From assembly GCA_035366835.1 (NCBI GenBank), contig DAOSIS010000002.1, forward strand, positions 113,208 to 177,207: a DNA stretch of 64,000 nucleotides. Direction: 5' to 3'. Below, piece after piece: positions 32,956-60,819 of this stretch. This DNA is from Syntrophales bacterium. GTDB lineage: Bacteria; Desulfobacterota; Syntrophia; Syntrophales; UBA6109. The notes beneath the pieces were generated by a model. It was not told the DNA's origin, did not search any database, and saw nothing but the letters and a program-made list of their open reading frames with translations. Position 1 is the stretch's first letter; each line of letters begins with the position of its first letter. Made by a program: the position numbers and the translations under genes.

Positions 32956-34320
32956 TCAAACGATCTCGAACTTCTCGATCTTGTACTTCAGGGAGTCGTC
33001 CGTGACTTTCAGAAGCTCCGCCGCCTTGTTCTTCGCCCCCTTTGTCTTCTGCAGCGCCTTCTCGATCAGGCTCTTTTCAAACAGCGACACGGCCTCGTTG
33101 AGGTCGACGCCCTCTTCGGGGAGATCCAGGGCGGATGCGCCGACCCTCTCGAGGACGGAGGACGGCTGCAGCAGGTTCTCCGGCAGGACGATCGTCGACG
33201 CCTCCAGGGCGACGCTTCTTTCGATGATATTCTCCAGTTCCCGGACATTGCCGGGAAACGGATACTCCAGGAGGAGGCCCAGCGCATAGGCCGATATGGC
33301 CCGGGCCTCTTTTCCGTAAATCCGCGAGAATTTTTCGGCGAAATGCTTGGTGAGAATGGGAATGTCCTCCCGGCGGTTCCGCAGCGGCGGGATCACGATC
33401 GGGATGACATTGAGGCGGTAATACAGGTCCTCGCGGAATCCCCCCTCGCGGACCTTTTTCTCCAGGTCCTGATTCGTCGCCGAGATGATCCGCACGTTGA
33501 CCTTGATGTCCTCGATGCCGCCGATTCTCCGGAACGTCTTTTCCTGCACGACGCGGAGAAGCTTGACCTGCAGCGGCGGCGGGAGTTCACCGACTTCGTC
33601 GAGAAAAATCGTGCCGCCCCTGGCCGCCTCGAAAAGGCCCGGCTTGTCGAAGTAGGCATTGGTGAAGGAGCCTTTCATGTGGCCGAACAGCTCGGACTCC
33701 AGCAGATTCTCCGGAATGCCGCCGCAATTGATTGCCACGAAGGGCAGCTTGGCCTGCGGGCCGTGATCATGGATCGCCCTCGCGACGAGCTCCTTGCCGG
33801 TCCCGCTTTCACCCAGCAGGAGGACGTTGGCCGGCGTATCCCCGATCTTGCGGACCGTCGAGAAGATCCTGAGCATGTCCTTGTTCCTGGCGATCATGTC
33901 GCCGAAGTGGACCGCATCGTCCGAGTCCCGCTGAAAAGGAGCCTGTTCCTCCTTGAGTCCCTTCGTATCCAGGGCCTGCCGGATGAGGCGCTTGAGGTCA
34001 TCGACGTCGAAATCCTTCTCGACATAGTCGTAGGCCCCCTCTTTCATCGCGCGCACCGCGGTTTCACCCGTCGCATAAGCCGTAATCAGGATCACGAGGG
34101 TCCCCGGCGACAGTTCCTTGACGGATTTGAGAAACTCGAGGCCGTCCATTTTCGGCATCTTCAGGTCCGTCAGGATGAGATCGAAGTTTTCCTTCCTGCA
34201 CCGGTTCAAGCCCTTCATGCCGTCCGCTTCGCAGACGACGCTGTACCCTTCCCGGGTCAGCATGATCTCGAGCAGTTCCCGGACGCCGGCGTCGTCATCC
34301 ACAACAAGGATTCTTGTCAT
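32956..34320 (-). CDS. Sigma54-dependent response regulator (REC, AAA+, Fis-type HTH; NtrC/AtoC family)
   Basis: 454 aa. DDDAGVRELL...D54-type receiver, GESGTGKE Walker A, GAFTGA-like GSFTNA, and a C-terminal HTH (KNKAAELLKVTDDSLKYKI). The ATG overlaps the kinase stop as ATGA. Confidence 0.92.
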   Translation of the reverse strand: MTRILVVDDDAGVRELLEIMLTREGYSVVCEADGMKGLNRCRKENFDLILTDLKMPKMDGLEFLKSVKELSPGTLVILITAYATGETAVRAMKEGAYDYVEKDFDVDDLKRLIRQALDTKGLKEEQAPFQRDSDDAVHFGDMIARNKDMLRIFSTVRKIGDTPANVLLLGESGTGKELVARAIHDHGPQAKLPFVAINCGGIPENLLESELFGHMKGSFTNAYFDKPGLFEAARGGTIFLDEVGELPPPLQVKLLRVVQEKTFRRIGGIEDIKVNVRIISATNQDLEKKVREGGFREDLYYRLNVIPIVIPPLRNRREDIPILTKHFAEKFSRIYGKEARAISAYALGLLLEYPFPGNVRELENIIERSVALEASTIVLPENLLQPSSVLERVGASALDLPEEGVDLNEAVSLFEKSLIEKALQKTKGAKNKAAELLKVTDDSLKYKIEKFEIV

Positions 34321-36023
34321 CCCCCAACCTCACTGGCCGCATCGGCGGTGACCGGTTTCTTTTCAGGACGCGAGGACAGCCAGACTGCAACGGACGTTCC
34401 CCGTCCCGGCTCGCTTTCCAGGCGCACCCGGCCGCCGTGGTTTTCCACGATGCGCCGCACGATCGCCAGCCCCAGTCCCGTCCCTCGTTCACGAGTCGTA
34501 TAAAACGGCTCGAACACTCTCTGCAAGACATCTTTTCTCATGCCTGCACCCGTATCGCTGACCCTGAGGGTCACGCCGTCCGGATCGGAGGTGCGGGCCA
34601 GGCACACCGACACGGCGCCTTCCTCCGAAATCGATTGGACGGCATTCATCAGGAGGTTCCAGATCAACTGACGCATTTCCGCGCGATTCGCCGAGATCCG
34701 GGCATCGTCCCCGGTCAGTTCGACGCGGATGCCTTCGTGCCAGTCGGACACGTACCGGATCGCTTCGACGACATCGTTCACGAGGCCACGCAGCTCGATC
34801 GTTTCCTTCGTACCCGGTGACGGCCTCGCGAGGAGGAGAAAGTCCTTCATGAAGTTTTCGATCTGGTCCTTGCCGCGCAGGATGATCGACATCAGCCGCT
34901 CATCCGCCGCATTCAGCTGCAGGTCCTTCCTGAGCACCTGGATGGATCCGCTGATGGACGCAAGGGGATTGCGTATCTCGTGGGCCAGAACGGCGGCCAT
35001 TTCGCCGACGAAGGCGAGACGCCTGTTCTTCTCGTATTCCGCCTCCATCTTCTTCACGGCCGTCAGGTCGTGGAAGATCACGATGCTGCCGATCCTTTTC
35101 CCTTCCGCGCCCCGCAGAGGCGACAGGACCCATCCGAGGACGAGGCGTTCGCCGTCTTTCCTGGCGAATGCCAGATCGGTCCCCTTCTGCCTGCCCTCCG
35201 GCGAAGGCGGCTGCTCGTTCGCCTTCTCCACCGCAGCGGCAATTGCGGGAAAGACCTCGCGCAAGGGCCGGTTCAGCAGCTCGGCGAAGACATACCCCGT
35301 AATCTCCTCTGCGGCGCGGTTGAACGACTTGATCCTGCCGAGAAGGTCGATCGTGAAGATTCCCGCATCCACGGACTCGATGATGCTGCGATGAAGGACG
35401 TCCAGCTGGTCGAACGCCGTTTGCTTCTCTGCCAGGAGAAGACGGGCTCTCCTTTCCTGCCCGACGACGAAGCTTGCGAGAAGCGCGATCACGAAAAAGG
35501 AGAGGATGTGCACGAAACTCCGCGTCAGCGCCTCCCCCGGCGTGAGCGGCAGATCCTGCAGGAGAAAGGCGGTGGGGGGCTCGATCCATCCGTAGTACTC
35601 CAGATCCACGAGCAGGCCGTAGACGATGCTGCAGGCGGAGGCAGCCGTCATTCCGCCGCGACGCCCGAGAAAGATCACGGAATAGATGACGATCATCTGG
35701 TAGAATGCCGAGTAGACGCTGCGGCAGCCCCCCGTCAGATAGACCAGGACGGAAACCAGGCCGATATCGCAAAGCGACTGGATGTAGATGTGGGCGCGTT
35801 CGCGGTCGATGACCCGCAGCAGGAAGACATACGCGATCGAGACGAGATAGAACAGCAGCGCCGTACGATAGAGTGCGGCCGTCGACTCCACCGGGAACAG
35901 CGCCAGTTGACGAAACTGCAGGCTGATGGCGACGCCAAGCAGGAGCGTCGCCAATCCCACGCGCCCCAGCATCAGCCACCATATCCGCTTGTCGATTCCG
36001 GAATTCTCCTGCGACCGATTCAT
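34317..36023 (-). CDS. Membrane sensor histidine kinase (polytopic N-terminus, PAS, HisKA, HATPase)
   Basis: Start at MNRSQENSGIDKRIWW (ATG 36023) behind GAAGAGG. About 6 TM helices, a PAS domain, H-box HEIRNPLASI, and G-boxes DTGAGM and GTGLGL. Confidence 0.88.
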   Translation of the reverse strand: MNRSQENSGIDKRIWWLMLGRVGLATLLLGVAISLQFRQLALFPVESTAALYRTALLFYLVSIAYVFLLRVIDRERAHIYIQSLCDIGLVSVLVYLTGGCRSVYSAFYQMIVIYSVIFLGRRGGMTAASACSIVYGLLVDLEYYGWIEPPTAFLLQDLPLTPGEALTRSFVHILSFFVIALLASFVVGQERRARLLLAEKQTAFDQLDVLHRSIIESVDAGIFTIDLLGRIKSFNRAAEEITGYVFAELLNRPLREVFPAIAAAVEKANEQPPSPEGRQKGTDLAFARKDGERLVLGWVLSPLRGAEGKRIGSIVIFHDLTAVKKMEAEYEKNRRLAFVGEMAAVLAHEIRNPLASISGSIQVLRKDLQLNAADERLMSIILRGKDQIENFMKDFLLLARPSPGTKETIELRGLVNDVVEAIRYVSDWHEGIRVELTGDDARISANRAEMRQLIWNLLMNAVQSISEEGAVSVCLARTSDPDGVTLRVSDTGAGMRKDVLQRVFEPFYTTRERGTGLGLAIVRRIVENHGGRVRLESEPGRGTSVAVWLSSRPEKKPVTADAASEVGG

Positions 36024-36074
36024 GGCCTCTTCATTGATACGCGATAAATTATTCTGTGCTCCGCGAAGGCGCAA

Positions 36075-36083
36075 TGCTATAAT
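36075..36083 (+). promoter_or_regulatory. Extended -10 promoter candidate (TGcTATAAT) giving a near-leaderless comEC mRNA
   Basis: A perfect TATAAT at 36078-36083 is preceded by TG at 36075-36076. The comEC ATG at 36095 has no Shine-Dalgarno site. Confidence 0.35.
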
Positions 36084-36094
36084 ATTTTTCCAAA

Positions 36095-38647
36095 ATGATC
36101 TATCCTTTTCCCCATACGAACAGGCCCCTCGTGCCCGTCGCGCTTGCCTTCGCCGTCGGGATTTTCGCCGCGTACCGCTTCGAATGGAGCCTTTCCCTTC
36201 TCTGCTGCTCACTCCTTCTTGAACTGGTCTTCCTGCTCCTGGCGTTCCGCTGCCGGCGCGACTGGCTTTGGGGATTGCTGTTGATCGGCTTCTTTCTCCT
36301 GGGAGGCGCGGGGTTCGCCTTTTCCGACTACAGGGCCTGTTCCGCACCGCCGAGCCCCGACCCATCCTCCGATCGGGCCGCCCGCCTGCAGGGCCTGGTC
36401 GCGTGCGTACCGGAACGGTGGCCCGACCGGACGGAGCTGACGATCGATCTCCAGGGCGTCGTACGACGGGAGGGCTCGCTTGCGCCTCTCCGGGGGCGGA
36501 TCCGGCTTGCCGTCGCCGGCCACGGACCGTGGATGTACGGCGACCTCGTCCGTTTCGAAACCCGGCTGAAGCCGCTCGCGGGGCTGAGCAATCCCGGGGT
36601 TTTCAGGCGATCCGAGAAACTGCGGTGGGCCGGCATTTCCGCACGCGCTTTCGTGCCGGAGCCGTCCGGCGTCGCCGTCGTGAGAAGGAATCAGGCGAAC
36701 GGATTTCTTTTCGCCCTGGAGCGTTTCCGGGAAGAGATCCGCGAATGCGTCCACCGCCACGCCGCCTCTCCGGAACGCGAGATGATTTCCGCGATGATCC
36801 TGGGGGCGCAGCAGGAGATCCCCCGCGACATCGTCGACCTCTTCAACCGGACGGGGACATCCCACATCATCGCCATCTCCGGGTTCAATGTCGGCATCGT
36901 CGCACTGGTCTGGATCTTTCTCGCCCGGTCGCTGCTGTCCCTCTCGACCGCGCTCCTCCTGAGGATCGATGCAGTCCGCCTCTCCTACGCCCTTGCCCTG
37001 CCGCCGGTGCTGATGTTCGCCCTGATTGCGGGAATGGGGATCTCCGTCGTGCGGGCGACCATCATGGCCGTCATCTTTCTGTGTGCCCTCCTGCTGGGGC
37101 GGGAGCGGGATCTCTTCAACAGCCTGGCCTTGGCGGCGATCGTCATTCTCGCCGCCTCTCCGCCTTCTCTTTTCGACGTCTCCTTCCAGTTGTCCTTTGC
37201 CGCCGTCGCCGCCATCCTCTTTGGCGCGCCGCCGCTCTCCGCGCGCCTGAGGTCCGCGGACGCCGCTGCAGGCCCCGGGCCGGATCATCCCTGGCGGCGC
37301 TGGCGCACCCGCCTGGCGGTCTTCGCGGTGGTCACGATTGTCGCGACGGCCGGCACCCTCCCGCTCATCGCCTATCACTTCAACCGCGTCTCGGCGACGG
37401 TGCTGGTCGCCAATTTCGCGGTGATCCCGATTCTCGGGTTCCTGGCGATTCCCCTGTCCATGGGCATTGCGGTTCTCGCGCCGCTGTCCGAATTCCTCGC
37501 CGCCCAGCTGATTTCGGTCGTCGCCTTTCTCGTTCACATCTCGGTCGCCATCGTGCGCTACTTCGCCCTGCTGCCGTGGTCCTCATTCACCGTAGGCACG
37601 CCGACCCCGGCCGAGATCGCCGGCTACTACCTTTTCTTCACCACGGCCATCGGCACGCTGGAGAGAAAAGGCGCCGCGGCCGAAGAGGCGGCTGCCCGCA
37701 CGGTGACGTCCCGCCGCCGGGTGCTTCTTCTGGGTCTTGCGATGTTCTTCGCCGCCGACGTCCTGTACTGGAGCGTCGTCCGCGATCGCCTGAACGACCG
37801 GCTGGAAGCGACGTTTTTCGATGTCGGCCATGGCAGCGCCGCCCTGCTGTCTCTGCCGGGAGGCTTTGCCGTGCTGGTGGACGGCGGTGGCGCGGAAGCG
37901 GAAAAGGACGCCTTCGACAGCGGACGCCACATCCTCCTCCCTTTCCTGAGGCGCCAGCGGATCGGCAGGATCGACCTCCTCATCGTCACCCATCCCCACC
38001 CCGATCATCTCAACGGCCTCGTGACCGTCCTGGAAGAATTCCCCGTCCGGGAGATCTGGACCAACGGCAGACGGGAAGGCGGGGAATACCAGGACCGTTT
38101 TCACCTGCTGGCGTCCTCGCGCGGGATTCCCGTCCGGTCCTTCGACGCCTCGAAACCCGCCCGCGTCATCAACGGTGTTGAGATCCGCCCCCTCAATCCC
38201 CAGGCCCCCCTGCCGGTCGCGGCGGCGGCCAGGCGCACCTACGATGCCGTCAACGACGAGTCGCTGGTTCTCAGGGTTTCGTACGGGAAGCACTCGATCC
38301 TCCTGCCGGCGGACATCTCCGCAGGCGTGGAGCAGCGACTGATCGCCGGGGGTGCGGACCTCCGCAGCGACGTCCTGCTCGTCCCGCATCACGGCGGCGC
38401 ATCGTCCAGCAGTCCGGCTTTTCTCCGCGCCGTTCAGCCGCGCATCGCCGTCGTCAGCTGCGGCCGACTGAACCGTATTCGCCTTCCCCATCCGATCGTG
38501 GTGGAACGTTTTTCGGCCCATCCCTGCGTGCTCCTGCGGACCGACCGCGACGGGGCCGTCATGATGTCGACGGACGGGCAGACCCTCCGCTGCCGCACGA
38601 TGGGCAAGAGCGACAGGGGCCGATTCAACGAATTCCTGTTGCATTAG
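36095..38647 (+). CDS. comEC: DNA internalization competence protein ComEC/Rec2 (with C-terminal metallo-beta-lactamase domain)
   Basis: 850 aa. Polytopic competence domain (GTSHIIAISGFNVG) and an MBL domain (LIVTHPHPDHLNG). Confidence 0.9.
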   Translation: MIYPFPHTNRPLVPVALAFAVGIFAAYRFEWSLSLLCCSLLLELVFLLLAFRCRRDWLWGLLLIGFFLLGGAGFAFSDYRACSAPPSPDPSSDRAARLQGLVACVPERWPDRTELTIDLQGVVRREGSLAPLRGRIRLAVAGHGPWMYGDLVRFETRLKPLAGLSNPGVFRRSEKLRWAGISARAFVPEPSGVAVVRRNQANGFLFALERFREEIRECVHRHAASPEREMISAMILGAQQEIPRDIVDLFNRTGTSHIIAISGFNVGIVALVWIFLARSLLSLSTALLLRIDAVRLSYALALPPVLMFALIAGMGISVVRATIMAVIFLCALLLGRERDLFNSLALAAIVILAASPPSLFDVSFQLSFAAVAAILFGAPPLSARLRSADAAAGPGPDHPWRRWRTRLAVFAVVTIVATAGTLPLIAYHFNRVSATVLVANFAVIPILGFLAIPLSMGIAVLAPLSEFLAAQLISVVAFLVHISVAIVRYFALLPWSSFTVGTPTPAEIAGYYLFFTTAIGTLERKGAAAEEAAARTVTSRRRVLLLGLAMFFAADVLYWSVVRDRLNDRLEATFFDVGHGSAALLSLPGGFAVLVDGGGAEAEKDAFDSGRHILLPFLRRQRIGRIDLLIVTHPHPDHLNGLVTVLEEFPVREIWTNGRREGGEYQDRFHLLASSRGIPVRSFDASKPARVINGVEIRPLNPQAPLPVAAAARRTYDAVNDESLVLRVSYGKHSILLPADISAGVEQRLIAGGADLRSDVLLVPHHGGASSSSPAFLRAVQPRIAVVSCGRLNRIRLPHPIVVERFSAHPCVLLRTDRDGAVMMSTDGQTLRCRTMGKSDRGRFNEFLLH

Positions 38648-38706
38648 AAACACTTTCTGTGTTATCGGACGCGACTTGCAGGGCCGCATCGGCGGAAAGT
38701 GGGGAT

Positions 38707-39969
38707 ATGGAAAAACTGACGGCAGTCCGGGGTTTCAAAGACATCCTCCCGGAAGAAACGGGCCGGTGGCGCCAGGTCGAACAGACGGCGCACGAGGTCT
38801 TCAAGTCTTTCGGTTTTCGGGAAATCCGGGTCCCCATCCTCGAAAAGACGGATCTGTTCGTCCGGGGCATCGGGGAGACCACGGACATCGTGGAAAAGGA
38901 AATGTACACCTTCTCGGACAAGGGGGAGGAGTCGCTGACGCTTCGCCCGGAGGCGACGGCCTCCGTGGTCCGCGCCTACCTGGAGCACGGCCTCTTCCAT
39001 GAGTCCGTGTCCAAACTCTATACGATGGGCCCCATGTTCCGCCGCGAAAGGCCCCAGAAAGGCCGCTTCCGGCAGTTTCACCAGATCGACGTGGAGCACC
39101 TGGGCACCGAGCATCCCCGCATCGACGCGGAGATCATGCTCATGCTCGTGCATTACCTCCAGCGGCTCGGCCTGCAGGCCCTGTCCCTGGAGATCAATTC
39201 CCTCGGGTGCGCCGTCTGCCGTCCCGATTTCAAGAAGGCCGTCGTCGCTTTCTTTGCCGGCCGCGAAGCGGGACTCTGCGCCGACTGCACGCGCCGTCTC
39301 CGGACGAATCCGCTGCGCATCTTCGACTGCAAAACGGAGGCTTGCCGTCAGATCACCGCGGACGCCCCGAAGCTCTCCGATCACCTTTGCGCGCCCTGCA
39401 GGGAGCATTTCGACGCCGTGCGGAAATCCCTCGACATTTTCGCGCTTCCCTACCGGATCAACGAACGCATGGTACGGGGTCTCGACTACTATTGCCGGAC
39501 CGCCTTCGAGATCACGACGGAGCACCTCGGCGCCCAGAACGCGGTCGCAGGCGGCGGGCGTTACGACGGGCTGGTTCGCGACCTCGGCGGACCGGATATC
39601 CCGGGGATCGGTTTCGCCATCGGCATGGAGCGCCTGATCTCCCTGCTCCCCGATCAGGATGACGGACCGGGGCGGAGTCTGGACCTCTTCGTGGCCGCGA
39701 TCGGAGAGAAGGCGCAGGAAGTCGCCTACGGGATCTGCAACCGTCTCCGCATGCGCGGGCTCTCCGTGGAAATGGAAATCGGCGGCAAGAGCCTCAAGAG
39801 CCAGATGAAAAGGGCCGACCGGCTCGGGTGCCGCTATACCCTGATCCTGGGTGAAAACGAGCTCGCGCAGGGCAGCGCCGGTCTGCGGGATATGAAAAGC
39901 GCCGCGCAGTCGAGCGTGCCGCTCCCGGGGATCGAGGACACTGTCACGGACCATCTTCGAGCGAGGTGA
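38707..39969 (+). CDS. hisS: Histidine--tRNA ligase
   Basis: Start at MEKLTAVRGFKDILPEE (ATG 38707). Class II motifs (FRRERPQKGRFRQFHQ, GGGRYDGL). Confidence 0.95.
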   Translation: MEKLTAVRGFKDILPEETGRWRQVEQTAHEVFKSFGFREIRVPILEKTDLFVRGIGETTDIVEKEMYTFSDKGEESLTLRPEATASVVRAYLEHGLFHESVSKLYTMGPMFRRERPQKGRFRQFHQIDVEHLGTEHPRIDAEIMLMLVHYLQRLGLQALSLEINSLGCAVCRPDFKKAVVAFFAGREAGLCADCTRRLRTNPLRIFDCKTEACRQITADAPKLSDHLCAPCREHFDAVRKSLDIFALPYRINERMVRGLDYYCRTAFEITTEHLGAQNAVAGGGRYDGLVRDLGGPDIPGIGFAIGMERLISLLPDQDDGPGRSLDLFVAAIGEKAQEVAYGICNRLRMRGLSVEMEIGGKSLKSQMKRADRLGCRYTLILGENELAQGSAGLRDMKSAAQSSVPLPGIEDTVTDHLRAR

Positions 39970-39975
39970 GGAAAG

Positions 39976-41751
39976 TTGGCTGAATTCATTACGGGTCTAA
40001 AGAGAAGCCATTACTGCGGCGATGTGACCGCCGCCCTGGACGGCCGGGAGGTGGTGCTGATGGGCTGGGCCCACCGCCGGAGGGATCACGGCGGCGTCAT
40101 CTTCATCGACCTGCGGGACCGCGAAGGCCTCGTTCAGGTCGTCTTCAATCCCGACGTTGCTCCGGACGCCCACCGCGATGCGCACCGCATCCGCAGCGAA
40201 TACGTGCTCGCCGTGGCCGGAACCGTGCGCCGACGGCCAGCGGGGATGGAGAATCCCGATCTGAAGACCGGCGAGATCGAGGTCATGGCGGGACGGCTGG
40301 AAATCCTCAACGAGTCGAAGACGCCGCCCTTCCTCCTCGATGCGCAGGAAGAGATCTCGGAAAACGTCCGCCTGAAGTACCGCTACCTCGATCTCCGCAG
40401 GCCCGCCCTGCAGAGGAACCTCTTCCTCCGCAGCCGCGTGGCGGGGGAAACGAGGTCCTTTTTCCAGCGGGAAGGCTTCATCGAAGTGGAAACCCCCTTT
40501 CTGACGAAGAGCACGCCCGAAGGGGCGCGGGACTACCTGGTCCCCAGCCGCGTCAACAAGGGGATGTTCTACGCGCTTCCCCAGTCGCCGCAGATCTTCA
40601 AGCAGCTGCTCATGGTTTCCGGCTTCGACCGCTACTTCCAGATCGTGAAGTGCTTCCGCGATGAAGACCTCCGCGCGGACCGGCAGCCCGAGTTCACGCA
40701 GATCGACGTCGAGATGTCGTTTGTCTCGGAGGAAGACATCCTCTCGACGATGGAGAGGATGATCGCCCATGTGTTCCGGACCTGCCTCGGCAGGGAGTTG
40801 CCCCTGCCCTTCCCCAGGATTTCGTATCGCAGGGCCATGGACTGTTACGGAAAGGACTGCCCGGATCTGCGCTACGGGCTGGAAATTCAGGACCTCACGG
40901 ATATCGTCGGCAAATCGGCGTTCAATCTCTTCCGGGAGGTCGCCGACTCGGGAGGCCTGATCCGGACGATCCGCATCCCCGACGCGGCCGCCCTTTCGCG
41001 GAAGGACCTCGACGGACTGAAGGACTTCGGGGCGGCCTACGGAGCCAAGGGACTCGCCTGGGCGAGAATCTCCGCCGAGGGCTGGACCTCTCCCATCGCG
41101 AAGTTCCTGAGCCCCGAGGAGATCGGACGGATCAATGAGCGGTCCGGGTCGAAACCGGGGGACGTGCTGGTTTTTTCGGCCGACACGCGCAGAGTCGTGC
41201 AGGACGTCCTCGGCAACCTCCGGATCCACCTTGCCCGGAAGCTGAACCTCGTCGGTGCGGATCAGCTGGCCTTCACCTGGGTCACGGAATTTCCTCTCAT
41301 GGAGTACAGCGAGTCGGAAAAGAGGTACGTGTCGACGCACCACCCCTTTACGTCGCCGGTGCTGGAGGACCTGCCCTTCCTGGAAACCGATCCGGGCAAG
41401 GTGCGGGCCCGCGCCTACGATCTGGTCCTCAACGGCTCCGAAGTCGGCGGCGGCAGCATCCGGATTCACCGCCAGGACGTTCAGGCGAGGATCTTCAAGG
41501 CACTGGGACTCGGCGAGGAGGATGCCCGGATGAAGTTCGGATTCCTGCTCGACGCCCTCGAGTACGGCACGCCGCCGCACGGAGGGATTGCCTTCGGCCT
41601 GGACCGGCTGGTCATGATCATGAGCGGCGCGGAATCGATCCGCGACGTCATCGCCTTCCCGAAGACGCAGAAGGCGACCTGCCTGCTGACCGATGCACCG
41701 TCGCCCGTCGCCATCGAGCAGTTGATGGAGCTGTCCCTGAAGATCGTGTAA
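39976..41751 (+). CDS. aspS: Aspartate--tRNA ligase
   Basis: 591 aa. TTG start behind GAGGTGAGGA. Motifs [18 protein letters not shown] and GGGSIRIH. Confidence 0.95.
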
Positions 41752-41922
41752 CGCACGCGGAGTCCTTCGAGAGATTGCGCGGGCGATCGCGACGGGGCGG
41801 CTCCCGAGCGGAAACACCGCGGACGCCGGTTGCCGGCGACCGTCTTTTTGTCCGGCGCAGTTCATCGCCCTTCTCTGTCTTCCTTCCCGATCGCGCCTGA
41901 AGATTCTCCCGGGAGAACGACC

Positions 41923-43812
41923 ATGGCCAAATGGAACAAGGAAAAGAGGGTCCTCGATCACGAGCACACGAATTTCTGGAAGTTCGACCTCAAGGAGGTC
42001 GGCGAACCGAACCTCCAGAAGGACGTCTTCCCCTACGACGAGGTCTGCCGCATCGACTTCGATCACCGGCTGCTTCCGATCGACCCGGCCGCAGAGATTT
42101 TCATCACCGACACGACCTTTCGCGACGGGCAGCAGGCGCGGCCCCCCTACAGCGTCCGGCAGATCGTCGAGCTGTACACGCTGATGGGCAGGCTGGGCGG
42201 CCCCAACGGCGTCATCCGCCAGAGCGAATTCTTTCTGTACAGCGGCAAGGATCGCGAGGCGGTGGACCGGTGCCGGGACCTGGGCCTGGCCTATCCGGAA
42301 ATCACCGGCTGGATCCGCGCCGACCGGAACGACGCCGGACTGGTCAAGGAAGCGGGGTTCGCGGAGACCGGCATCCTCACCTCCGTCTCCGACTACCACA
42401 TCTTCCTCAAGCTTCAGAAGACGCGGCGGCAGGCGATGGGGGATTACCTGCGCGTCGTGACGACGATCCTCGAGGCGGGCATTCGCCCGCGGTGCCACTT
42501 CGAGGACTTGACGCGCGCCGACATCTACGGCTTCTGCATTCCTTTCGCCCAGGAACTCATGAAACTGCGCGCCCAGAGCGGCATCGACATCAAGATCCGC
42601 CTCTGCGACACCATGGGATACGGCGTGACCTATCCGGGCGCCTCCCTGCCGCGGAGCGTGGACAAACTGGTGCGGGCCTTCATCGAAGATGCCGGGGTGC
42701 CCGGCCGTCTCCTCGAGTGGCACGGGCACAACGACTTCCACAGGGCCTTCAACAACGCCTCCAGCGCCTGGCTCTTCGGCTGCGCCGCCGCCAATGCGAC
42801 CCTGCTGGGACTGGGCGAGAGGACCGGGAATCCTCCCCTCGAGGGCCTGATCATCGAGTATATCCAGCTCCGCGGCCGCACGGACGGCATCGACACGACC
42901 GTCATCACGGACATCGCGAATTACTTCCAGCGGGAGATCGGGGTGCGGATCCCCGAAAACTATCCCTTCGTCGGGGCCGAGTTCAACGTCACCCGGGCCG
43001 GCGTCCATGCCGACGGGCTCATCAAATCCGAGGAGATCTACAACATCTTCGATACCGCGAAGCTCCTGAAGCGGCCCATCGTCCCGATGATCACCGACAA
43101 GTCCGGGAAGGCGGGCATCTCCCACTGGATCAACCTGAAGCTGGGCCTTTCCGGCGATCATGCGATCGACAAGCGCCATCCGGGTGTGGCCAAGATCTCC
43201 AAGTGGATCGCGGAGGAATACGAAGCCGGGCGGCAGACGGGCATCTCCAACGAGGAAATGGAAAAGCGGGTGCGCAAGTACCTTCCGGAGCTCTTCATGT
43301 CCGGGCTGGAGAAGATCAAGCACAGGGCGGCTGAAGCCGCGATCGCCGTGGTGCGCCAGGTCGTGGAACACCCCGTCATGAAGACCATGAAGCCGGATGC
43401 CCAGGAACCGATCATGCAGCAGATCATCGAGGAGAACCCGTCCATCCAGTTCGCCTACGTCGTCGACATGAATGGCCGCAAGACGACGCGCAACGTCACC
43501 AACATCGCGGACCGTGCGAAATACGAGAACTACGGCGTCGGAACGGACCAGTCCGACCGCGAGTGGTTCATCCGCCCGCTCCAGTCGGGCAAGATCCACG
43601 TCACCAATTTCTACATTTCGAAGATGACGGGTGCGCTGTGCTTCACCGTTTCCGGCCCGATTGCGGACGACAGGGACGAGATGGTGGGCGTCTTCGGCGT
43701 GGACATCAAATTCGAGGACTGGGTGCGGCGCGTGGAGGATATCGCCGAGGCGACGCAGATCGCCCTCCGCGCCGAGTACGAGGCCCGGGACAAGTCGGAC
43801 AAGTGGATGTAG
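41923..43812 (+). CDS. HMGL/DRE-TIM family Claisen-condensing enzyme (Re-citrate/homocitrate/isopropylmalate-synthase-like) fused to a C-terminal Cache/PAS-like domain
   Basis: Start at MAKWNKEKRV (ATG 41923); 629 aa. ITDTTFRDGQQ and EWHGHNDFH metal-site motifs. The C-terminal part (aa about 505-600) reads FAYVVDMNGRK...SDREWF...VTNFYISKMTGALCFTVSGPI...MVGVFGVDIKF, which is Cache-like. Confidence 0.8.
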   Translation: MAKWNKEKRVLDHEHTNFWKFDLKEVGEPNLQKDVFPYDEVCRIDFDHRLLPIDPAAEIFITDTTFRDGQQARPPYSVRQIVELYTLMGRLGGPNGVIRQSEFFLYSGKDREAVDRCRDLGLAYPEITGWIRADRNDAGLVKEAGFAETGILTSVSDYHIFLKLQKTRRQAMGDYLRVVTTILEAGIRPRCHFEDLTRADIYGFCIPFAQELMKLRAQSGIDIKIRLCDTMGYGVTYPGASLPRSVDKLVRAFIEDAGVPGRLLEWHGHNDFHRAFNNASSAWLFGCAAANATLLGLGERTGNPPLEGLIIEYIQLRGRTDGIDTTVITDIANYFQREIGVRIPENYPFVGAEFNVTRAGVHADGLIKSEEIYNIFDTAKLLKRPIVPMITDKSGKAGISHWINLKLGLSGDHAIDKRHPGVAKISKWIAEEYEAGRQTGISNEEMEKRVRKYLPELFMSGLEKIKHRAAEAAIAVVRQVVEHPVMKTMKPDAQEPIMQQIIEENPSIQFAYVVDMNGRKTTRNVTNIADRAKYENYGVGTDQSDREWFIRPLQSGKIHVTNFYISKMTGALCFTVSGPIADDRDEMVGVFGVDIKFEDWVRRVEDIAEATQIALRAEYEARDKSDKWM

Positions 43813-50048: not shown

Positions 50049-50099
50049 CCCCTGCAGCCGAAGCCTCCCCCCGTCGGCCTTCCGGGAATGCCGCGATCC

Positions 50100-50801
50100 C
50101 TATTCGATCGACATCAGCGACCGCCAGCGATCCTCTTCCGACGCAACGGGCAGGTTTCTCCGGCGCAGGAGATCCACGATCGGCTTTGCATTGAAGCGGA
50201 AGTAGGGGTTGATGCGGAATTCATCCGCGAGAGTCGAAAAGACGTGCCGGGGATCGTACGTTGCGGCAAAGGAATCGAGGTCCCGGTTCCCGGGTTCCAG
50301 CTTTCGTGCAAAGGCGATGGAATCCTTCACGTAGTCATGGCCCGCGTACACGACCGTCTCCGGCGTCAGGGCCATCAAGGCTTTCACGGTGCGGTGGAAG
50401 GCCGCCTGATCCCCGCTGAAGCAGTTCCCGATCGTCCCGTTGAAGAGCGTGTCGCCGCTGATCAGATAGATTCCCGCCAGAAAACAGATCGAATCCTTCG
50501 TGTGGCCGGGCGTCCGCATGACGGTGACCGATTCATCCCCCAGGGAGATTCGGTGCCCCTCCCTCGGGACGTCAGGTGCAAGGTATTCTGCGCCTGTCTC
50601 CCGGAGAAGAGCCGCATTCCCCGACGTGTGGTCCGCGTGACTGTGGGTATTCCCGACGAGAGAGATCCGCAGTCCCCTCTCCCCCGTGAAGCGCAGGATC
50701 TCCGCCACGGCGCCGCCGTCGATGACCAAGGCCTGCCTTTGCCCGTGTATGACGTATCCGAAATTGTCCGCTCCGTAGCGAAACTGCCGAACGCTCGCCA
50801 T
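50100..50801 (-). CDS. Hydroxyacylglutathione-hydrolase-like MBL-fold hydrolase
   Basis: Start set at MASVRQFRYGADNFGYVI (ATG 50801; a GTG alternative exists at 50816). THSHADH motif and a GloB-like C-terminus. Confidence 0.8.
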   Translation of the reverse strand: MASVRQFRYGADNFGYVIHGQRQALVIDGGAVAEILRFTGERGLRISLVGNTHSHADHTSGNAALLRETGAEYLAPDVPREGHRISLGDESVTVMRTPGHTKDSICFLAGIYLISGDTLFNGTIGNCFSGDQAAFHRTVKALMALTPETVVYAGHDYVKDSIAFARKLEPGNRDLDSFAATYDPRHVFSTLADEFRINPYFRFNAKPIVDLLRRRNLPVASEEDRWRSLMSIE

Positions 50802-50828
50802 CCCACGCCCCCGCACGATTTTTTCGCT

Positions 50829-50857
50829 TCTATGTCAGGCACCGGGACGGTTGTCAA
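50829..50857 (-). promoter_or_regulatory. Sigma70-type promoter candidate: TTGACA-17 nt-CATAGA
   Basis: On the minus strand, TTGACA is at 50857-50852 and CATAGA at 50834-50829, about 28 nt upstream of the ATG at 50801. Confidence 0.35.
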
Positions 50858-50874
50858 GGGTGCATCCCTCCGCA

Positions 50875-50906
50875 GGAAAAGGGCGGAAGGGTTCGCTTCC
50901 GCCCTT
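50875..50906 (-). terminator. Probable intrinsic terminator after the chemoreceptor gene
   Basis: The arms AAGGGCGGAAG / CTTCCGCCCTT pair perfectly around a 6-nt loop. On the minus strand the stem runs into UUUU and then CC, so the U-tract is short. Confidence 0.45.
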
Positions 50907-50924
50907 CACCAATTGGCATGGTCG

Positions 50925-52042
50925 TCAGAAGTCCTGGAACTCCCCTTCCTTCATCGGGATGAGGTTCCTGTCGACCTTCGGTTTCTTGGCCGCCTTCATT
51001 GCCGCGACAATAGATTTCTTGACCGCTCCTGCATGTCCCCCCATGACCTTCGAGACACACCCCGCACCGTTGCCGTTGAACGCACCCCCGACAACCTCGA
51101 CGAGCCCCCTGACGACTTCCTTCATCTGCCCGGCCTGGGCGTTCATCTCCTCTGCAGCGCTTGCGGACTCCTCGGCGTTGGCCGCCGTCGCCTGGGTCAC
51201 CTTGTCCATCTCGGAAACGGCTATGTTGATCTGCTGGATCCCCTGCGCCTGCTCCTGGGATGCGGCTGCTATTTCATCTATGATATTACCGACTTTTACC
51301 GATATTTCGACATTTCCCTTGAAAGCCTCGTGGGTGATCTTGGTCAACTCGTTGCCGTTCTTGACGCTCTTGAGCGTGTTCTCGATCAGGACGCTCGTGT
51401 TCTTGGCCGCCTCTGCAGCCCGTATGGCCAGGTTCCGCACCTCGTCGGCGACGACAGCGAATCCCGCACCCGCTTCACCGACACGCGCCGCTTCGACCGC
51501 CGCATTGAGCGCGAGAAGGTTCGTCTGGAAGGCGATTTCGTCGATGGTCTTGATGATCTTCCCCGTATCCTCGCTCGTCTTCGTGACATCCGCCATGGCC
51601 TGGGCCATCTGATTCATGTGCGCGTCGACCTTCTCCACGATCTGCTTCGTTTCCGCCATCAGGCTCTTCGCCTGTGTCGCATGGTCTGCATTCTGCCGGG
51701 TCATCGACGTCATCTCCTCCAGCGAAGACGAGGTTTCCTCGAGCGACGAGGCGGATTCCGACGCGCCCTCCGCCAGCGATTGGCTTGCCTGGGCCACCTG
51801 TCCCGATGCCGACGACACCTGGCCGGAGGCCTCGTTCAACTGGCTCACCGCCAGATGGATCGGTCTTGTGATGCTGCGCGCAAAGAAGAACACGGCCAGG
51901 ACCGTGACGGCCAGGAAGGCGGCGCCGATGATCAGGATGAAATTCCGTATCGCGCGGAGAAGATTCCCACGACGAGAAGCGGTATCAGAACGACAGCTAC
52001 CCCTCCCCATACCAGCTTCATGCCCAACGTCATCTTTTTCAT
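50925..52042 (-). pseudogene. Methyl-accepting chemotaxis protein, frameshifted between TM1 and TM2 and lacking a ligand-binding domain
   Basis: ATG 52042 (behind AAAGGGGG) encodes MKKMTLGMKLVWGGVAVVLIPLLVVGIFSARYGISS* (stop 51934-51932). TM2 plus the signalling domain (IRNFILIIGAAFLAVTVLAVFFFARSITRPI...EIAFQTNLLALNAAVEAARVGEAGAGFAVVADEVRNLA) continue in a different frame down to 50925. Confidence 0.7.
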
Positions 52043-52296
52043 TTCTTTTCCCCCTTTCCCTGTCTTGTTCAGTGACCGCCCCTGCAGTCGAAGTGATTTG
52101 TACCCCGATAGTCAACTTGCATGCCAAATACGTCTGCATGTCATGAAGCGAGCGATATTCGCTGGTTGCGCAGATCGACGGGTCAGGAGAGGTCTCGGAG
52201 AAGGCGCTCGGGAGGAGGAAAATCGTCCGGTATTCCGGAATCCGTCCTGAAGAGCGGACACCGTGACAGGATGGAAGAACCAAGACGAAAGGCAGA

Positions 52297-53687
52297 CTAT
52301 CCGTTGACGACGGTGATGTCGTGCTTCTTGAGCAGATCGTACAGATGGGACCGCGACAGCCCGGAAATGCGGCAGGCTTCCTTCACGCTCGACCCACAGG
52401 AATCCATGAGGCGGCGAAGATAGTCCCACTCCGATGCCCTGCGAAATTCCTGAAACGCGGCGAGGGGAGACGCGGCGGATGGAGGGACGTCAGCGCCGGA
52501 GACGCGCTCCTTCTCCAGATCCGTCTTGGCGAGCTTCACGCGGATCTCGGGGGGAAGGTGCTTCGGGTAGAATGTGGGCTCGCGGTATGCGACGGCAAAG
52601 GCCCTCTCGATCGTGTGGAAGAACTGCCGCACGTTGCCCGGCCAATCATAGGAGGCGATCACTTCGAGAAATTCGGGAGAGAAACCCTTCAAGGCGATGT
52701 CGTGACGCCGGCAGAGCATGGCGACATGGTGCATCATCAGATCCCACAAATCCTCGCGCCGTTCGCGCAGCGGCGGCGTCTTGATGGTGATGGTGCGAAG
52801 CCGGAAGAGGAGATCTTCCCTGAACTCGCCCACCCGAACCATGTCCTCGAGGTTGCGGTTTGTCGCCGCAATCAGGCGGAAGTCGCTTTCATCTCCCGGC
52901 CGCCGACGGGACGGAAGGTGCGCCCTTCGATCACGCGCAGGAAGGTCTTCTGCACGGCCGGAGGAAGTTCGCCGATTTCATCCAGGAAAAGTGTTCCCTT
53001 ATCCGCCTGCTCGACCAGTCCGGTCATCTGCCTGTCGGCGCCGGTGAAGGATCCCTTTTCGTGTCCGAACAGAATGCTTTCCACCAGCGTCGCCGGCAGG
53101 GCCGCGCAGTCGACGACCACGAATTTCCCCTTGGCGCGGCTGCTGTTTTCGTGAATCGACGTCGCAAAAAGGTCCTTCCCTGTCCCCGTCTCCCCGGTGA
53201 TGAGGACATTCGCATCGCACAGCGACGCTTGGGCCAGCAATTCGAAGCAGGCCGACATCTTCACGCTGTGCCCCAGAATGCCGCCGCACCGGAACACGTG
53301 CGGCGTGCTTCGTTCCCGCTTCGTCTCGCGGTAGTCCAGTGCCCGTTGAATGCACAGCGTGATCTTCTTGATGGAAGACGTCTTCTCCAGGTAATCCCAC
53401 ACGCCGTTCCGGATGGCCAGTTCAGCGCCATCCGGCTCTCCGAAACCCGTGATGATGATGACTTCGGGCGACGATGCCGAGGCCTGAATCTTCGGGATGG
53501 CCGTGAGCCCGTTCCCGTCCGGCAGGCGCACGTCCAGGAGAACAACATCGAAGGGTTTCGCCGCGGCCAATGCCAGCCCCGTGCGCAGGTCAGGGGCCGG
53601 CTGGACTCGGTGCCCCATCTCCGCAACCCGGTCGCAGATCATCCTGGAGTAACTTGCATCGTCGTCGATCACCAGGATATCGGCCAC
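52297..53687 (-). pseudogene. Sigma54-dependent response regulator split by a 1-nt frameshift inside the AAA+ domain
   Basis: ORF 52872-53687 ends ...RTFRPVGGREMKATSA*. Shifting frame at about 52884-52886 restores ...[36 protein letters not shown]..., the conserved NtrC-family sequence, which continues into ORF 52297-52842 with the HTH. Confidence 0.8.
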
Positions 53688-53732
53688 CCATTCCTCCCTT
53701 TTTCAAGAAAGCTGTTAGCTGTTCTGCAGCGG

Positions 53733-55403
53733 CTAGAGCGCTTCCGGTTCTTCCAGAAGCGGAAGGATCACGCGCACCGTCGTTCCCCTGCCGACCTCGC
53801 TCTCCACGGTGACCTTGCCGCCGTGATTCTTCACGGTTCCGTAAACGACGGGCAGGCCCATTCCCGTGCCCTGGCCGGGGTTCTTCGTCGTAAAGAAAGG
53901 ATCGAAAATGTGCTCCATGTCCTTCGCCTCGATCCCGGTGCCCGTGTCCTTTACGGCGACTTCGAGGTAACGCCCCGGCGGAAGGGTGGAAAGTCCGGCG
54001 GCCCCTTCCTGATTGCCGGCGTTCCTGCAGCGAAGGGCGATTTCCAGAAGCCCACCGCGTTCCTTCATGGCGCAGACCGCATTGTCGCAAAGGTTCATGA
54101 AGGCCCTGTGAATCTGGGCGGGGTCTCCCCTGACGATATCCCGTTCCGCCGAATTCTTCATGCGGGCACGGATGTTTTCCGGAAGGGTCGTCTCCAGCAC
54201 GCGCAGGGCGTCTCCGGCGACCAGGGAAACGCGGAACGGGCGAAACTCCCGTTTCGTCTCGCGGCTGAAGACGAGAAGCTTGCAGACAAGATCCTTTGCC
54301 CTCTCCGCCGCGCCGTTCATGGTGCGGAGGTAGGAGTAGATCCTGTCTTCCTTCTTGAGGTAAGCCATGCTCATGTCGATGTAGCCGGAGATGGCACCCA
54401 GGATATTGTTGAAATCGTGGGCAATTCCCCCCGCCAGCGTCGCAACCGCCTCCATCTGCCGCGACCGCTGCAATTGCCGACGGAGAAGCTCCCTCTCCTC
54501 CTCCGCCTTCGTCAGGTCCGTGATATCGCGGATCGATTCGATCGCCCCGGCAATCCCGTCGCTTCCGTCAAAGAGGGCCCGCGCCTTCCCCCACAGGTAT
54601 TTCGACGCCCCCCGCATCATCGGAGCGGTCGTTTCCGCAATGACGATGTCCCCATTCCGCTGCACGAAGAAATACCGCTGTTCAATCTCCCCGCCTCCCT
54701 GAAGGGCCAGATCGATGAGGATGGGACGGCGTTCTCCATAGAAGGGAACGGCATATTCGAAATTCCCTTTGCCGATCATTTCGCCCGCGGCTTTCCCGGT
54801 CAAGACCTCGATGGCCCGGTTCCAGGCGATGATGCGGCCCTCGCGGTCGATCGCGAAAGTCGCATCGGGCAGGAAATCGACGATGTCCGCAAGACGTTTT
54901 TCCGATTCGCGGACCTTTTCCTCGGCCCGTCTCCGCTCCGTGACGTCACGGACGTTCATGACAAAGCCATTGACCGACGGCTGATCCAGGAGGTTCCTTC
55001 CCACGCCTTCGAGAAGGCGTTCGGAGCCGTCCTTGTGCCGGACGCGGAAGGCATTGGGGATTATTTCGCTCGAGACAACCGCCTTCGCGTAGTCGTCAAA
55101 GGCCCTCGCCAAGTCGACGGGCAGGATGAAATCGAAGCCGCTCATGCCGATGATTTCCGACGGTTTGTAGCCCAGGAAGCGCTCGAGGGACGGGCTTGCG
55201 TAGATGATCATCCCGTTCCTGTCGGTGACAAGAATGATGTCCGAAGAATTCAGGGAGATCTCGCGAAAGAACTCTTTGCCCTTCTGCAGGCATTCGATCT
55301 GCTCCCTGCATGTGGATTCCGACTTCTTCAGCGCGGCGATCTCCTGCCTGAGGAGATCCAATTCCGCACGGAGGTCCTCATCCAGCCGTTCTTCACTGCT
55401 CAT
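53733..55403 (-). CDS. Cytoplasmic PAS-PAS sensor histidine kinase
   Basis: Start at MSSEERLDEDL (ATG 55403). Coiled coil, two PAS domains, H-box GIAHDFNNIL, and G-boxes DTGTGI and GTGMGL. Confidence 0.88.
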   Translation of the reverse strand: MSSEERLDEDLRAELDLLRQEIAALKKSESTCREQIECLQKGKEFFREISLNSSDIILVTDRNGMIIYASPSLERFLGYKPSEIIGMSGFDFILPVDLARAFDDYAKAVVSSEIIPNAFRVRHKDGSERLLEGVGRNLLDQPSVNGFVMNVRDVTERRRAEEKVRESEKRLADIVDFLPDATFAIDREGRIIAWNRAIEVLTGKAAGEMIGKGNFEYAVPFYGERRPILIDLALQGGGEIEQRYFFVQRNGDIVIAETTAPMMRGASKYLWGKARALFDGSDGIAGAIESIRDITDLTKAEEERELLRRQLQRSRQMEAVATLAGGIAHDFNNILGAISGYIDMSMAYLKKEDRIYSYLRTMNGAAERAKDLVCKLLVFSRETKREFRPFRVSLVAGDALRVLETTLPENIRARMKNSAERDIVRGDPAQIHRAFMNLCDNAVCAMKERGGLLEIALRCRNAGNQEGAAGLSTLPPGRYLEVAVKDTGTGIEAKDMEHIFDPFFTTKNPGQGTGMGLPVVYGTVKNHGGKVTVESEVGRGTTVRVILPLLEEPEAL

Positions 55404-55719
55404 ACAACGCTCCGCGGAATTTCCGCATGCGGGGCATGATCTTCCCCTTTCTGGCCCCTGATACCATTTCTTCAATTGCCGGTCCATAGGCTATTCGCCG
55501 CCGTTCCCGTCCGCGCACCATCCTCAGTCCGGTCAGAGGTCGGGGAAGAAAACAGCGCATCGGGCTTGGAAAGAGACGGCAGACAGACCGGAGATGGGGA
55601 TGTCCCCGCCTTTGTGCAGGGGGACGACAGCGTTATTGCCGACAGGAGCCTGCCGACGAGGATTTTTCGGTGAGAGCGGCCCACGGCTGACAGCCGCCCG
55701 CAGATTGTCCCGGCACGGA

Positions 55720-56974: not shown

Positions 56975-57462
56975 GCCGCTTCTTCCCTCCCCCGGTTTCT
57001 CCGGATATTCAACAATGGCTGCATGCTGCGAATTTCTGCCCGGGATCCACGAACACCCGCATCGGGCCCTTGCGCGGTTGATCCAGATCCGCCCCGCATT
57101 CTGGGGCTTCAGCCGGAGAACCAGGATCGAGCCGTGTTCTTCAGCGGACGCGGGCACTGATGAGTTCGGTGATAATCCGGCGGGCACTCTTAACGCTCGG
57201 GCGGGATTCCTCTCGATGGGGCCTGGAGCTCTTCGGCGAACCCGTGGCGCCCCCGTCCCGCCGCTCCGGGCCGGGTATCCCGTACAATACACGTCGATGG
57301 ACTCCATGTCCTGTCTGGGCAGGGGCGTCGTGCAGGCATCGCCAGCGTAGATGGAATGCTTCCCTTCTTGCCTTCTCTTCAGCGACGGGAATCTTCCCTC
57401 CAATCTTCGAGGGATTTTGCGCGTTTCACGGAACCCCTTGCCGAAGAGTCGTGCGCGCGGAT

Positions 57463-57498
57463 CGGCAAGCCTCCGCAGAGGACCTCGGAGGCCTGCCG
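57463..57498 (-). other. Strong 13-bp stem-loop in the 3' region of mop, with no U-tract
   Basis: The minus-strand RNA CGGCAGGCCUCCG-(10 nt)-CGGAGGCUUGCCG forms 12 Watson-Crick pairs plus 1 G-U pair. On the plus strand the same position is an A-C mismatch, so the structure favours the minus-strand transcript. Confidence 0.5.
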
Positions 57499-57535
57499 AT
57501 TTTCCAACAAGGACGCGCATACGCACTGTGAGCGG

Positions 57536-60731: not shown

Positions 60732-60819
60732 TGGTGCCTAGGGCGGGACTTGAACCCGCATGATGCTGGGCATCGAGGGATTTTAAGTCCCTTGCGTCTA
60801 CCAATTCCGCCACCCAGGC
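60732..60819 (-). tRNA. tRNA-Leu (anticodon UAA), CCA encoded
   Basis: 88 nt: GCCTGGG acceptor, D-arm GGTAGA, anticodon loop CTTAAAA, long variable arm, T-arm GCGGGTTCAAGTCCCGC, and 3' CCTAGGCACCA. Confidence 0.95.

Follow-up and report, generated by a model that had tools for sequence, protein, structure and literature searches.

The 64,000-nucleotide stretch of DNA analysed here (the window), from contig DAOSIS010000002.1 of a Syntrophales bacterium, carries at positions 41923-43812 a gene for a predicted Re-face citrate synthase that ends in a sensor domain of the Cache/PDC type. By orthology, the gene is a Re-face citrate synthase (EC 2.3.3.3; Re-citrate synthase) of the Syntrophus aciditrophicus long form. 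According to profiles and structure models, the C-terminal part of about 140 amino acids (aa) is a Cache/PDC fold, present as a stand-alone module in a soluble cytoplasmic protein. The residues of its pocket are more constrained than the rest of the Cache domain. On balance, the domain is read as a sensor through which a small molecule, probably an amino acid or a carboxylate, would control the enzyme allosterically, in place of a LeuA-type regulatory domain. Many strict anaerobes that have no Si-citrate synthase enter glutamate synthesis through Re-citrate synthase, among them syntrophs of methanogenic digesters and sulfate reducers of the human gut. The gene and the parts of its product are as follows.

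41923-43812, forward strand: long-form Re-citrate synthase gene, complete with 629 aa and a stop (open reading frame; full-length 75% identity to SYN_02536; homologues).
41923-42096, forward strand: N-terminal lead-in, aa 1-58, with a conserved FPY at aa 36-38 (alignment with characterised Re-citrate synthases).
42097-42921, forward strand: DRE-TIM (HMGL-like) barrel, aa 59-333, with D63, R67, and the H267-x-H269 metal/substrate motif (Pfam, PDB profile, Foldseek).
42922-43302, forward strand: post-barrel helical subdomain and linker, aa 334-460 (weak HCS_D2 Pfam match; also in short-form enzymes).
43303-43731, forward strand: Cache/PDC domain of one module, aa 461-603, in which a long N-terminal helix precedes a five-stranded sheet with helices (PF22673, profile, AlphaFold2 (AF2), Foldseek).
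43546-43704, forward strand: putative ligand-anchor residues D542-x3-R546-x-W548-F549, Y564, S566, and D594 (Tlp3/KinD alignments; conservation).
43732-43809, forward strand: C-terminal tail helix, aa 604-629 (alignment; low-confidence model, with a predicted local distance difference test score (pLDDT) of 40-66).

The open reading frame is uninterrupted over 629 codons and a stop, and its translation contains ITDTTFRDGQQ at aa 60-71 and HGHND at aa 267-271. The Pfam HMGL-like family matches aa 60-333 with 87.6 bits (cutoff 29). D63, R67, H267, and H269 are invariant across the homologue alignments, and the D-T-T-x-R-D-G and H-x-H-x-D motifs are present. The PDB relatives of the catalytic part, found by profile search and by Foldseek on the AF2 model, are methylthioalkylmalate, homocitrate, isopropylmalate, and citramalate synthases. 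For the barrel, Foldseek gives 6e1j, 6ktq, 4ov9, and 3mi3 at E values of 1e-10 to 1e-13, from a model of moderate pLDDT (70.7). The original prediction had read the N-terminal part as a DRE-TIM Claisen-condensing enzyme, and the family match, the motifs, and the barrel matches bear this out.

The Re-citrate synthases of S. aciditrophicus (SYN_02536) and Clostridium kluyveri (CKL_0973) are both said to have been characterised, the former by Kim et al. in 2013 (J Bacteriol 195:1689) and the latter by Li et al. in 2007 (J Bacteriol 189:4299). SYN_02536 is 75% identical to the window protein over the full 629 aa, with the Cache domain and the C-terminal tail included. CKL_0973 is 47% identical over aa 21-470, where it ends. 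The sequences of both biochemically characterised type-I Re-citrate synthases are given in Table S1 of PMC12016533, from which they were read by machine with a few character-recognition errors. The lead-in aligns from aa 1 with SYN_02536 and from aa 21 with CKL_0973, and its residues F36, P37, and Y38 show little or no variation in the homologue alignments. An extension of about 55 aa before the barrel is common to CKL_0973, CAC0970, Clo1313, SYN_02536, and the window protein; NifV and the type-II Re-citrate synthase HM1_2993 begin directly at the DTTLRDG motif and have no N-terminal extension. The nearest database relative of the window protein is 93% identical.

A neighbour-joining tree on the catalytic region (aa 55-440; 100 bootstraps; one not-a-number distance warning among the most distant outgroups) separates a type-I Re-citrate synthase clade from LeuA, NifV, and the type-II enzymes at 99/100. 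The type-II enzymes in the tree are those of H. modesticaldum (HM1_2993), Thermoanaerobacter, and D. mccartyi. Within the type-I clade, the window protein is sister to SYN_02536 at 91/100. The earlier placement in the Re-citrate synthase branch, which also invoked the lead-in, is supported by the two identities, the clade, and the lead-in alignment. The window enzyme is thereby predicted to be one of the long-form Re-citrate synthases that are already known, and the same architecture is present in the characterised SYN_02536, as well as in precomputed Pfam annotations and behind some NCBI names such as 'cache domain-containing protein'. As such, it would condense acetyl-CoA with oxaloacetate and feed the oxidative branch to 2-oxoglutarate and glutamate in a strict anaerobe. 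The catalytic unit would comprise the DRE-TIM barrel and the helical subdomain, aa 1-460.

A paralogue that uses a different 2-oxo acid (to make homocitrate, citramalate, or isopropylmalate), in which the Cache domain senses the product of that pathway, is very improbable. Low-level NCBIfam matches to the NifV, LeuA, and CimA models agree with such a paralogue, as does the generic label 'isopropylmalate/homocitrate/citramalate synthase' that JGI gives to most homologues. These NifV, LeuA, and CimA scores are, however, 3-10 times under the family cutoffs, the protein is 75% identical to a demonstrated Re-citrate synthase and its sister at 91/100, and some JGI records already say citrate (Re)-synthase. 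Identity as NifV, LeuA, or CimA is rejected, with every NCBIfam equivalog, LysS included, far below its cutoff: the best is nifV with 120.3 against 462.9, the LeuA models reach 56-116 against 517-748, and CimA reaches 77 against 950. Pfam gives no match to LeuA_dimer, ACT, or RAM in the window protein (LeuA_dimer at E values up to 1). An ordinary LeuA or CimA with a standard regulatory domain, which the original prediction had named as the outcome that would overturn it, does not fit these scores or the lack of a LeuA_dimer match.

The C-terminal domain matches the Pfam family MCP-like_PDC_1 (PF22673, 'first PDC sensor domain') at aa 497-599 with 46.5 bits (cutoff 27). The dCache_1 family stays below its cutoff (29.3 against 45), and the match covers profile positions 57-153 of 240, which is the first half. 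Because dCache_1 is below cutoff and the domain has only one module, about 140 aa long, the bimodular dCache_1 architecture is absent. The module corresponds to the membrane-distal, ligand-binding module of dCache_1-type sensors. A PDB profile search with a profile built from 22 C-terminal pieces finds Tlp3 (E=3e-7), KinD (E=9e-7), another chemoreceptor, the Roseburia uracil dCache, PctA, and, weakly, YkuI.

The AF2 model of aa 441-629 has a mean pLDDT of 84.5 and a predicted template modelling score (pTM) of 0.76. Two helices are followed in the model by two strands, a helix, and three more strands, with modelled elements at aa 461-481 (helix), within aa 508-596 (strands), and at aa 597-603 (helix). 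Nearly all of the top 50 Foldseek matches of this model are Cache/PDC sensor domains. Against the PDB, KinD, Tlp3, YycG/WalK, Mlp24/37, CtaA, TlpA, CqsR, and CitA are matched with a Foldseek probability of 1.0 and a best E value of about 1e-7. The Cache-type fold put forward in the original prediction is thus recovered by PF22673, by the Tlp3/KinD profile matches, and by structure. The extent given there, nucleotides 43315-43728 or aa 465-602, agrees with the modelled domain, and the C-terminal strings that it quoted are present in the translation. The tail helix that follows has the consensus EDIAEATQIAL..EYE.K.KSD.W and occurs only in a 629-aa Syntrophales/Smithella subgroup that includes SYN_02536; forms of about 609 aa from other lineages do not have it.

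Kyte-Doolittle means over 19 residues reach at most 1.25 anywhere in the protein, and its N-terminus is hydrophilic, so neither a transmembrane helix nor a signal peptide is predicted, as had also been claimed before. The Cache families are principally extracellular, with the exception of YkuI_C and Diacid_rec, and their partners are signal-transduction outputs (Upadhyay et al., PMC4822843). A Cache domain fused to an enzyme of central metabolism is atypical by this measure. In the window protein, the enzyme is the only partner domain of the Cache domain, and the extracytoplasmic placement between transmembrane helices for signalling, which is typical of the superfamily but, given YkuI_C and Diacid_rec, does not strictly define it, is absent.

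Conservation was assessed in 72 long forms with pairwise identity below 80%. The Cache core diverges faster than the catalytic domain, with a mean column entropy of 1.73 against 1.06. Near-invariance within aa 441-604 is limited to eight positions, namely S442, E445, G518, W548, F549, S566, L572, and D594. W548, S566, and D594 are present in 72 of 72 sequences and R546 in 66, while Y564 is present in 58 and replaced by Phe in 9 more.

In Tlp3, the carboxylate and ammonium groups of the ligand are held by Lys149, Trp151, Tyr167, Asp169, Thr170, and Asp196 (PMC7277094). The Tlp3 residues aligned by HMMER, with an offset of 36, are exactly these six, and their counterparts in the window protein are, in the same order, R546, W548, Y564, S566, K567, and D594. 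The AA_motif of PctA consists of Y121, R126, and W128, which contact the ligand carboxyl, and Y144 and D173, which contact the amino group (PMC8915833). Here, R126 is equivalent to R546, W128 to W548, Y144 to Y564, and D173 to D594, and the spacing of 16 residues from W548 to Y564 equals that of PctA and Tlp3. R546 corresponds to Tlp3 K149 and KinD R131, and it is exactly at this position that the KinD R131A entry (4jgq) departs from the wild-type sequence. Three of the six invariant Cache-core positions fall on the six published anchor positions, with a hypergeometric chance of about 2e-3. The pocket looks functional: it has a putative anchor for a carboxylate and, in addition, an acidic residue that would suit an ammonium or another cationic or polar group.

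A sensor for a non-amino carboxylate (pyruvate, acetate, citrate, 2-oxoglutarate, or oxaloacetate), serving feed-forward activation or product inhibition, is an improbable but real alternative. The top structural matches of the Cache domain are the pyruvate-binding KinD sensor domains, with R546 aligned to KinD R131, and CitA-type carboxylate sensors are also among the Foldseek matches. The amino-group binder Tlp3 D169 is Ser here and Y121 of the AA_motif is absent. In contrast, D594, the position of PctA D173 and Tlp3 D196 that contacts the ammonium group in characterised sensors, is invariant, with no Asp at this position in KinD, and Y564 is largely retained.

A second alternative, and the main rival, gives the Cache-like domain a structural or oligomerisation role, for a tetramer or for stability, without ligand or regulation. 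This is unlikely, at about the same level as the non-amino carboxylate sensor. PAS and Cache domains commonly dimerise, and the domain opens with the long helix at aa 461-481. The S. aciditrophicus long form is reportedly a homotetramer (Kim et al. 2013). Short forms that have no Cache domain are catalytically competent. Against a structural role, the few invariant residues of this otherwise fast-evolving domain sit at ligand-anchor positions (R546, W548, S566, and D594) and not at an obvious hydrophobic interface, and an invariant buried Asp together with a conserved Arg is hard to account for by packing alone.

Several points weigh against an allosteric amino-acid sensor. The counterpart of PctA Y121, T541, varies among the 72 long forms, of which 25 have E, 14 have T, and 7 have Y. 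The replacement of Tlp3 D169 is an invariant Ser and that of Y152/Y129 an invariant Phe, so the pocket is not of the canonical amino-acid type. R-x-W and G-x-D are general Cache signatures, and the conservation of the pocket may for this reason be partly structural. The full-length AF2 model is only moderate, with a pLDDT of 70.7 and a pTM of 0.55. The existence of functional short forms such as CKL_0973 indicates that the Cache domain is dispensable for catalysis. We know of no ligand, binding assay, or kinetic effect for the domain.

With these points counted, it is close to an even question, with a slight lean to doubt, whether the Cache domain is a true allosteric metabolite sensor. In the mechanism proposed for such a sensor, the domain would still bind a small metabolite with a carboxylate and probably an amino group. 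Occupancy would be passed to the catalytic domain through the long helix at aa 461-481, which joins the post-barrel subdomain. The Cache domain would then be a regulatory module analogous to LeuA_dimer in the isopropylmalate and citramalate synthases and to RAM in archaeal homocitrate synthase. The favoured ligand is glutamate or an amino acid related to it, since Re-citrate synthase opens the branch to 2-oxoglutarate and glutamate; an amino acid such as this pathway end-product would be the most economical guess. Pyruvate, 2-oxoglutarate, and citrate are serious alternatives because KinD is the best structural match. The most specific form of the proposal is held tentatively: a single-module Cache, derived from an amino-acid-sensing chemoreceptor module, may have been recruited as a sensor for allosteric feedback on the enzyme that opens the oxidative tricarboxylic acid branch in a very wide range of anaerobes.

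In a literature search, no paper connected Re-citrate synthase with Cache, or a Cache domain with HMGL-like; the texts of Kim 2013 and Li 2007, which may mention a C-terminal extension, were outside this search. Searches on intracellular, cytoplasmic, or cytosolic Cache domains and on SYN_02536 gave nothing relevant. The role of the Cache domain on Re-citrate synthase thus appears to be untouched in the literature. The original prediction knew of no characterisation of such an arrangement. This holds, seemingly, for the role of the Cache domain and fails for the enzyme, because the S. aciditrophicus enzyme of the same architecture has been characterised.

A scan of one genome per GTDB species gives 598 relatives, and the taxa and locus counts below refer to the best 80 of these 598. 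They belong to at least eight phylum-level groups, including Thermodesulfobacteriota, Nitrospirota, Lentisphaerota, Elusimicrobiota, Spirochaetota, Armatimonadota, Omnitrophota, and Termititenax. At lower ranks, they comprise Syntrophales, Desulfobacterales, Syntrophorhabdales, Desulfomonilales, Desulfovibrio/Bilophila/Mailhella, and Spirochaetales. In nearly all of the 80, the alignment to the query reaches aa 598 or beyond. Among the protein matches listed, more than 240 clusters at 90% identity are 57-93% identical to the query and all have the same Pfam domain pair, and more than 120 clusters consist of 629-aa homologues with this pair. Clustering at 50% yields the fused representatives P0121 and P0126 and many unfused forms of 440-476 aa, and the short forms match query aa 18-460.

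Given the 598 genome matches, the fusion is judged to be ancient and maintained. In the neighbour-joining tree, monophyly of the long forms has a support of 0/100, and a group of all long forms with the clostridial short forms has 80/100. Because the short forms nest among the long forms, loss of the domain is suggested. An old fusion with later losses fits this tree, with which repeated gains would also be compatible.

Some distant relatives carry other modules on the Re-citrate synthase-like core. P0122 (58% identical) has an N-terminal response-regulator receiver, which would imply control of a citrate-synthase-like enzyme by phosphorylation. P0170 and P0206 have a weak C-terminal ACT match, and P0151 has a C-terminal ATP-grasp/L-amino-acid-ligase domain. 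From these receiver, ACT (weak), and ATP-grasp domains, it seems that the scaffold swaps accessory modules repeatedly. Together with the RAM domain of S. acidocaldarius homocitrate synthase and the leucine-bound LeuA, they are a precedent for the exchange of regulatory modules on this scaffold and in that respect favour the sensor reading.

The names of the family in public records are inconsistent. Many NCBI and UniRef entries use 'histone-lysine N-methyltransferase', and 'triose-phosphate isomerase', 'EAL-associated domain-containing protein', and 'cache domain-containing protein' also occur. The label 'citrate (Re)-synthase' is confined to a part of the JGI entries, and the misannotation is systematic (P0010, P0016, P0036, P0272, P0281, and others).

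The gene lies in a housekeeping chromosomal stretch of a window with about 60% GC. Three features precede it.

41911-41915, forward strand: GGGAG ribosome-binding site, 7 nucleotides 5' of the ATG (sequence; fits the MAKWN N-termini of homologues).
41824-41848, forward strand: terminator-like GC hairpin and T-run between aspS and the Re-citrate synthase gene (pattern match only).
38659-41751, forward strand: hisS (38659-39969) and aspS (39976-41751), which immediately precede the gene on its own strand (Pfam; synteny conserved).

The ATG at 41923 is taken as the start because of the GGGAG at 41911-41915 and because homologues begin with MAKWN, an N-terminus common to close and distant ones. 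A start at the TTG at 41830, which would give a version of 660 aa, is rejected: it overlaps the terminator-like hairpin, and the homologues begin with MAKWN. The position of this hairpin, between aspS and the Re-citrate synthase gene, suggests that the latter may have its own promoter; the terminator-pattern scan found 3 sites against 1.7 expected. Rfam finds no riboswitch or leader RNA in the 171-nucleotide spacer between aspS and the Re-citrate synthase gene. The sole Rfam match in the window is one tRNA gene at 60735-60819 on the reverse strand, with 58.9 bits.

The order hisS-aspS-Re-citrate synthase on one strand is found in about 31-37 of the 80 related loci, with aspS directly upstream in about 36 and hisS in 31. 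These loci belong to several Thermodesulfobacteriota orders and one Spirochaetales metagenome-assembled genome. A functional reason for this synteny is not obvious apart from the link between oxaloacetate and aspartate. Upstream of the gene lie dnaE, a POR-type oxidoreductase, apgM, hom, recG, pfk, recJ, acyl-CoA ligases, a PilS-like kinase, comEC, hisS, and aspS. Downstream of the gene, a UvrD-like helicase and adk lie on the other strand.

The homoserine dehydrogenase at 12225-13535 on the reverse strand has a C-terminal ACT domain, the usual amino-acid-sensing add-on of biosynthetic enzymes, in the same genome. The histidine kinase beside comEC (34317-36365, reverse strand) contains a PilS-like six-transmembrane domain, PAS, HisKA, and HATPase; it looks like an ordinary two-component sensor that is unrelated to the Cache domain of Re-citrate synthase. 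An antisense open reading frame of 1200 aa at 39997-43599 on the reverse strand, which lies over aspS and the Re-citrate synthase gene, has no Pfam match and is most likely a GC-rich shadow frame. Other long open reading frames with no matches, such as 50088-52250, 52860-55439, and 57356-60121, may be artefacts of the same kind or real genes of unknown function.

A conserved, putative ligand-binding domain on the enzyme offers a concrete and easily testable hypothesis for the control of carbon flux into the Re-citrate synthase branch. If it is correct, it would apply to syntrophs, sulfate reducers (gut Desulfovibrio and Bilophila among them), Nitrospirota, Lentisphaerota, Elusimicrobiota, and Termititenax. 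The domain would then be the first documented Cache that acts directly on a central-metabolic enzyme with no signalling output. In the superfamily of isopropylmalate synthase, homocitrate synthase, and Re-citrate synthase, it would stand as a third, independent kind of regulatory domain. Cache domains would be extended from extracytoplasmic signalling receptors to the direct allosteric control of metabolism, and a soluble Cache scaffold would be available for biosensor design. The family also exposes a systematic annotation problem in public records.

Among known systems, SYN_02536 is of the same length class as the window protein and has the same two-domain architecture, but comes from another organism. 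The clostridial short forms CKL_0973, CAC0970, and Clo1313 share the catalytic core, the N-terminal lead-in, and the post-barrel helical subdomain, whereas CKL_0973 ends at about query aa 470 and does not have the Cache domain. In LeuA and CimA, which have LeuA_dimer, and in the homocitrate synthase of S. acidocaldarius, which has RAM, the DRE-TIM scaffold is likewise followed by a C-terminal non-catalytic domain. LeuA_dimer mediates end-product feedback by leucine or isoleucine, and RAM mediates the control of archaeal homocitrate synthase by lysine. M. tuberculosis LeuA has been crystallised with bound leucine (3fig, a PDB match), and the entry 6ktq is by its title a RAM-deleted S. acidocaldarius homocitrate synthase. 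The C-terminal fold of the window protein (Cache/PDC) is unrelated to either LeuA_dimer or RAM.

The sensor domains of Tlp3 (C. jejuni), PctA (P. aeruginosa), Mlp24/Mlp37 (V. cholerae), and KinD (the pyruvate sensor of B. subtilis) have the same fold as the window domain. They also share with it the Dxxx(R/K)xW(Y/F) motif, the Tyr 16 residues further on, and the Asp of the last strand. In contrast, they are extracytoplasmic, flanked by transmembrane helices, bimodular, and coupled to signalling outputs (PMC4822843), whereas the window domain is cytoplasmic, of a single module, and fused to an enzyme. The formate chemoreceptor domains are, like the window domain, made of one module, with homology to the membrane-distal ligand-binding module of dCache; they are extracytoplasmic, while the window domain is soluble and enzyme-fused. 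YkuI (EAL and YkuI_C) has a cytoplasmic Cache-like domain C-terminal to an enzyme-type domain and gives a weak profile match (2bas, E=0.034), and NCBI calls some homologues of the window protein 'EAL-associated domain-containing protein'. YkuI differs in that it belongs to cyclic di-GMP signalling and not to central metabolism, and its sequence relationship to the window protein is marginal.

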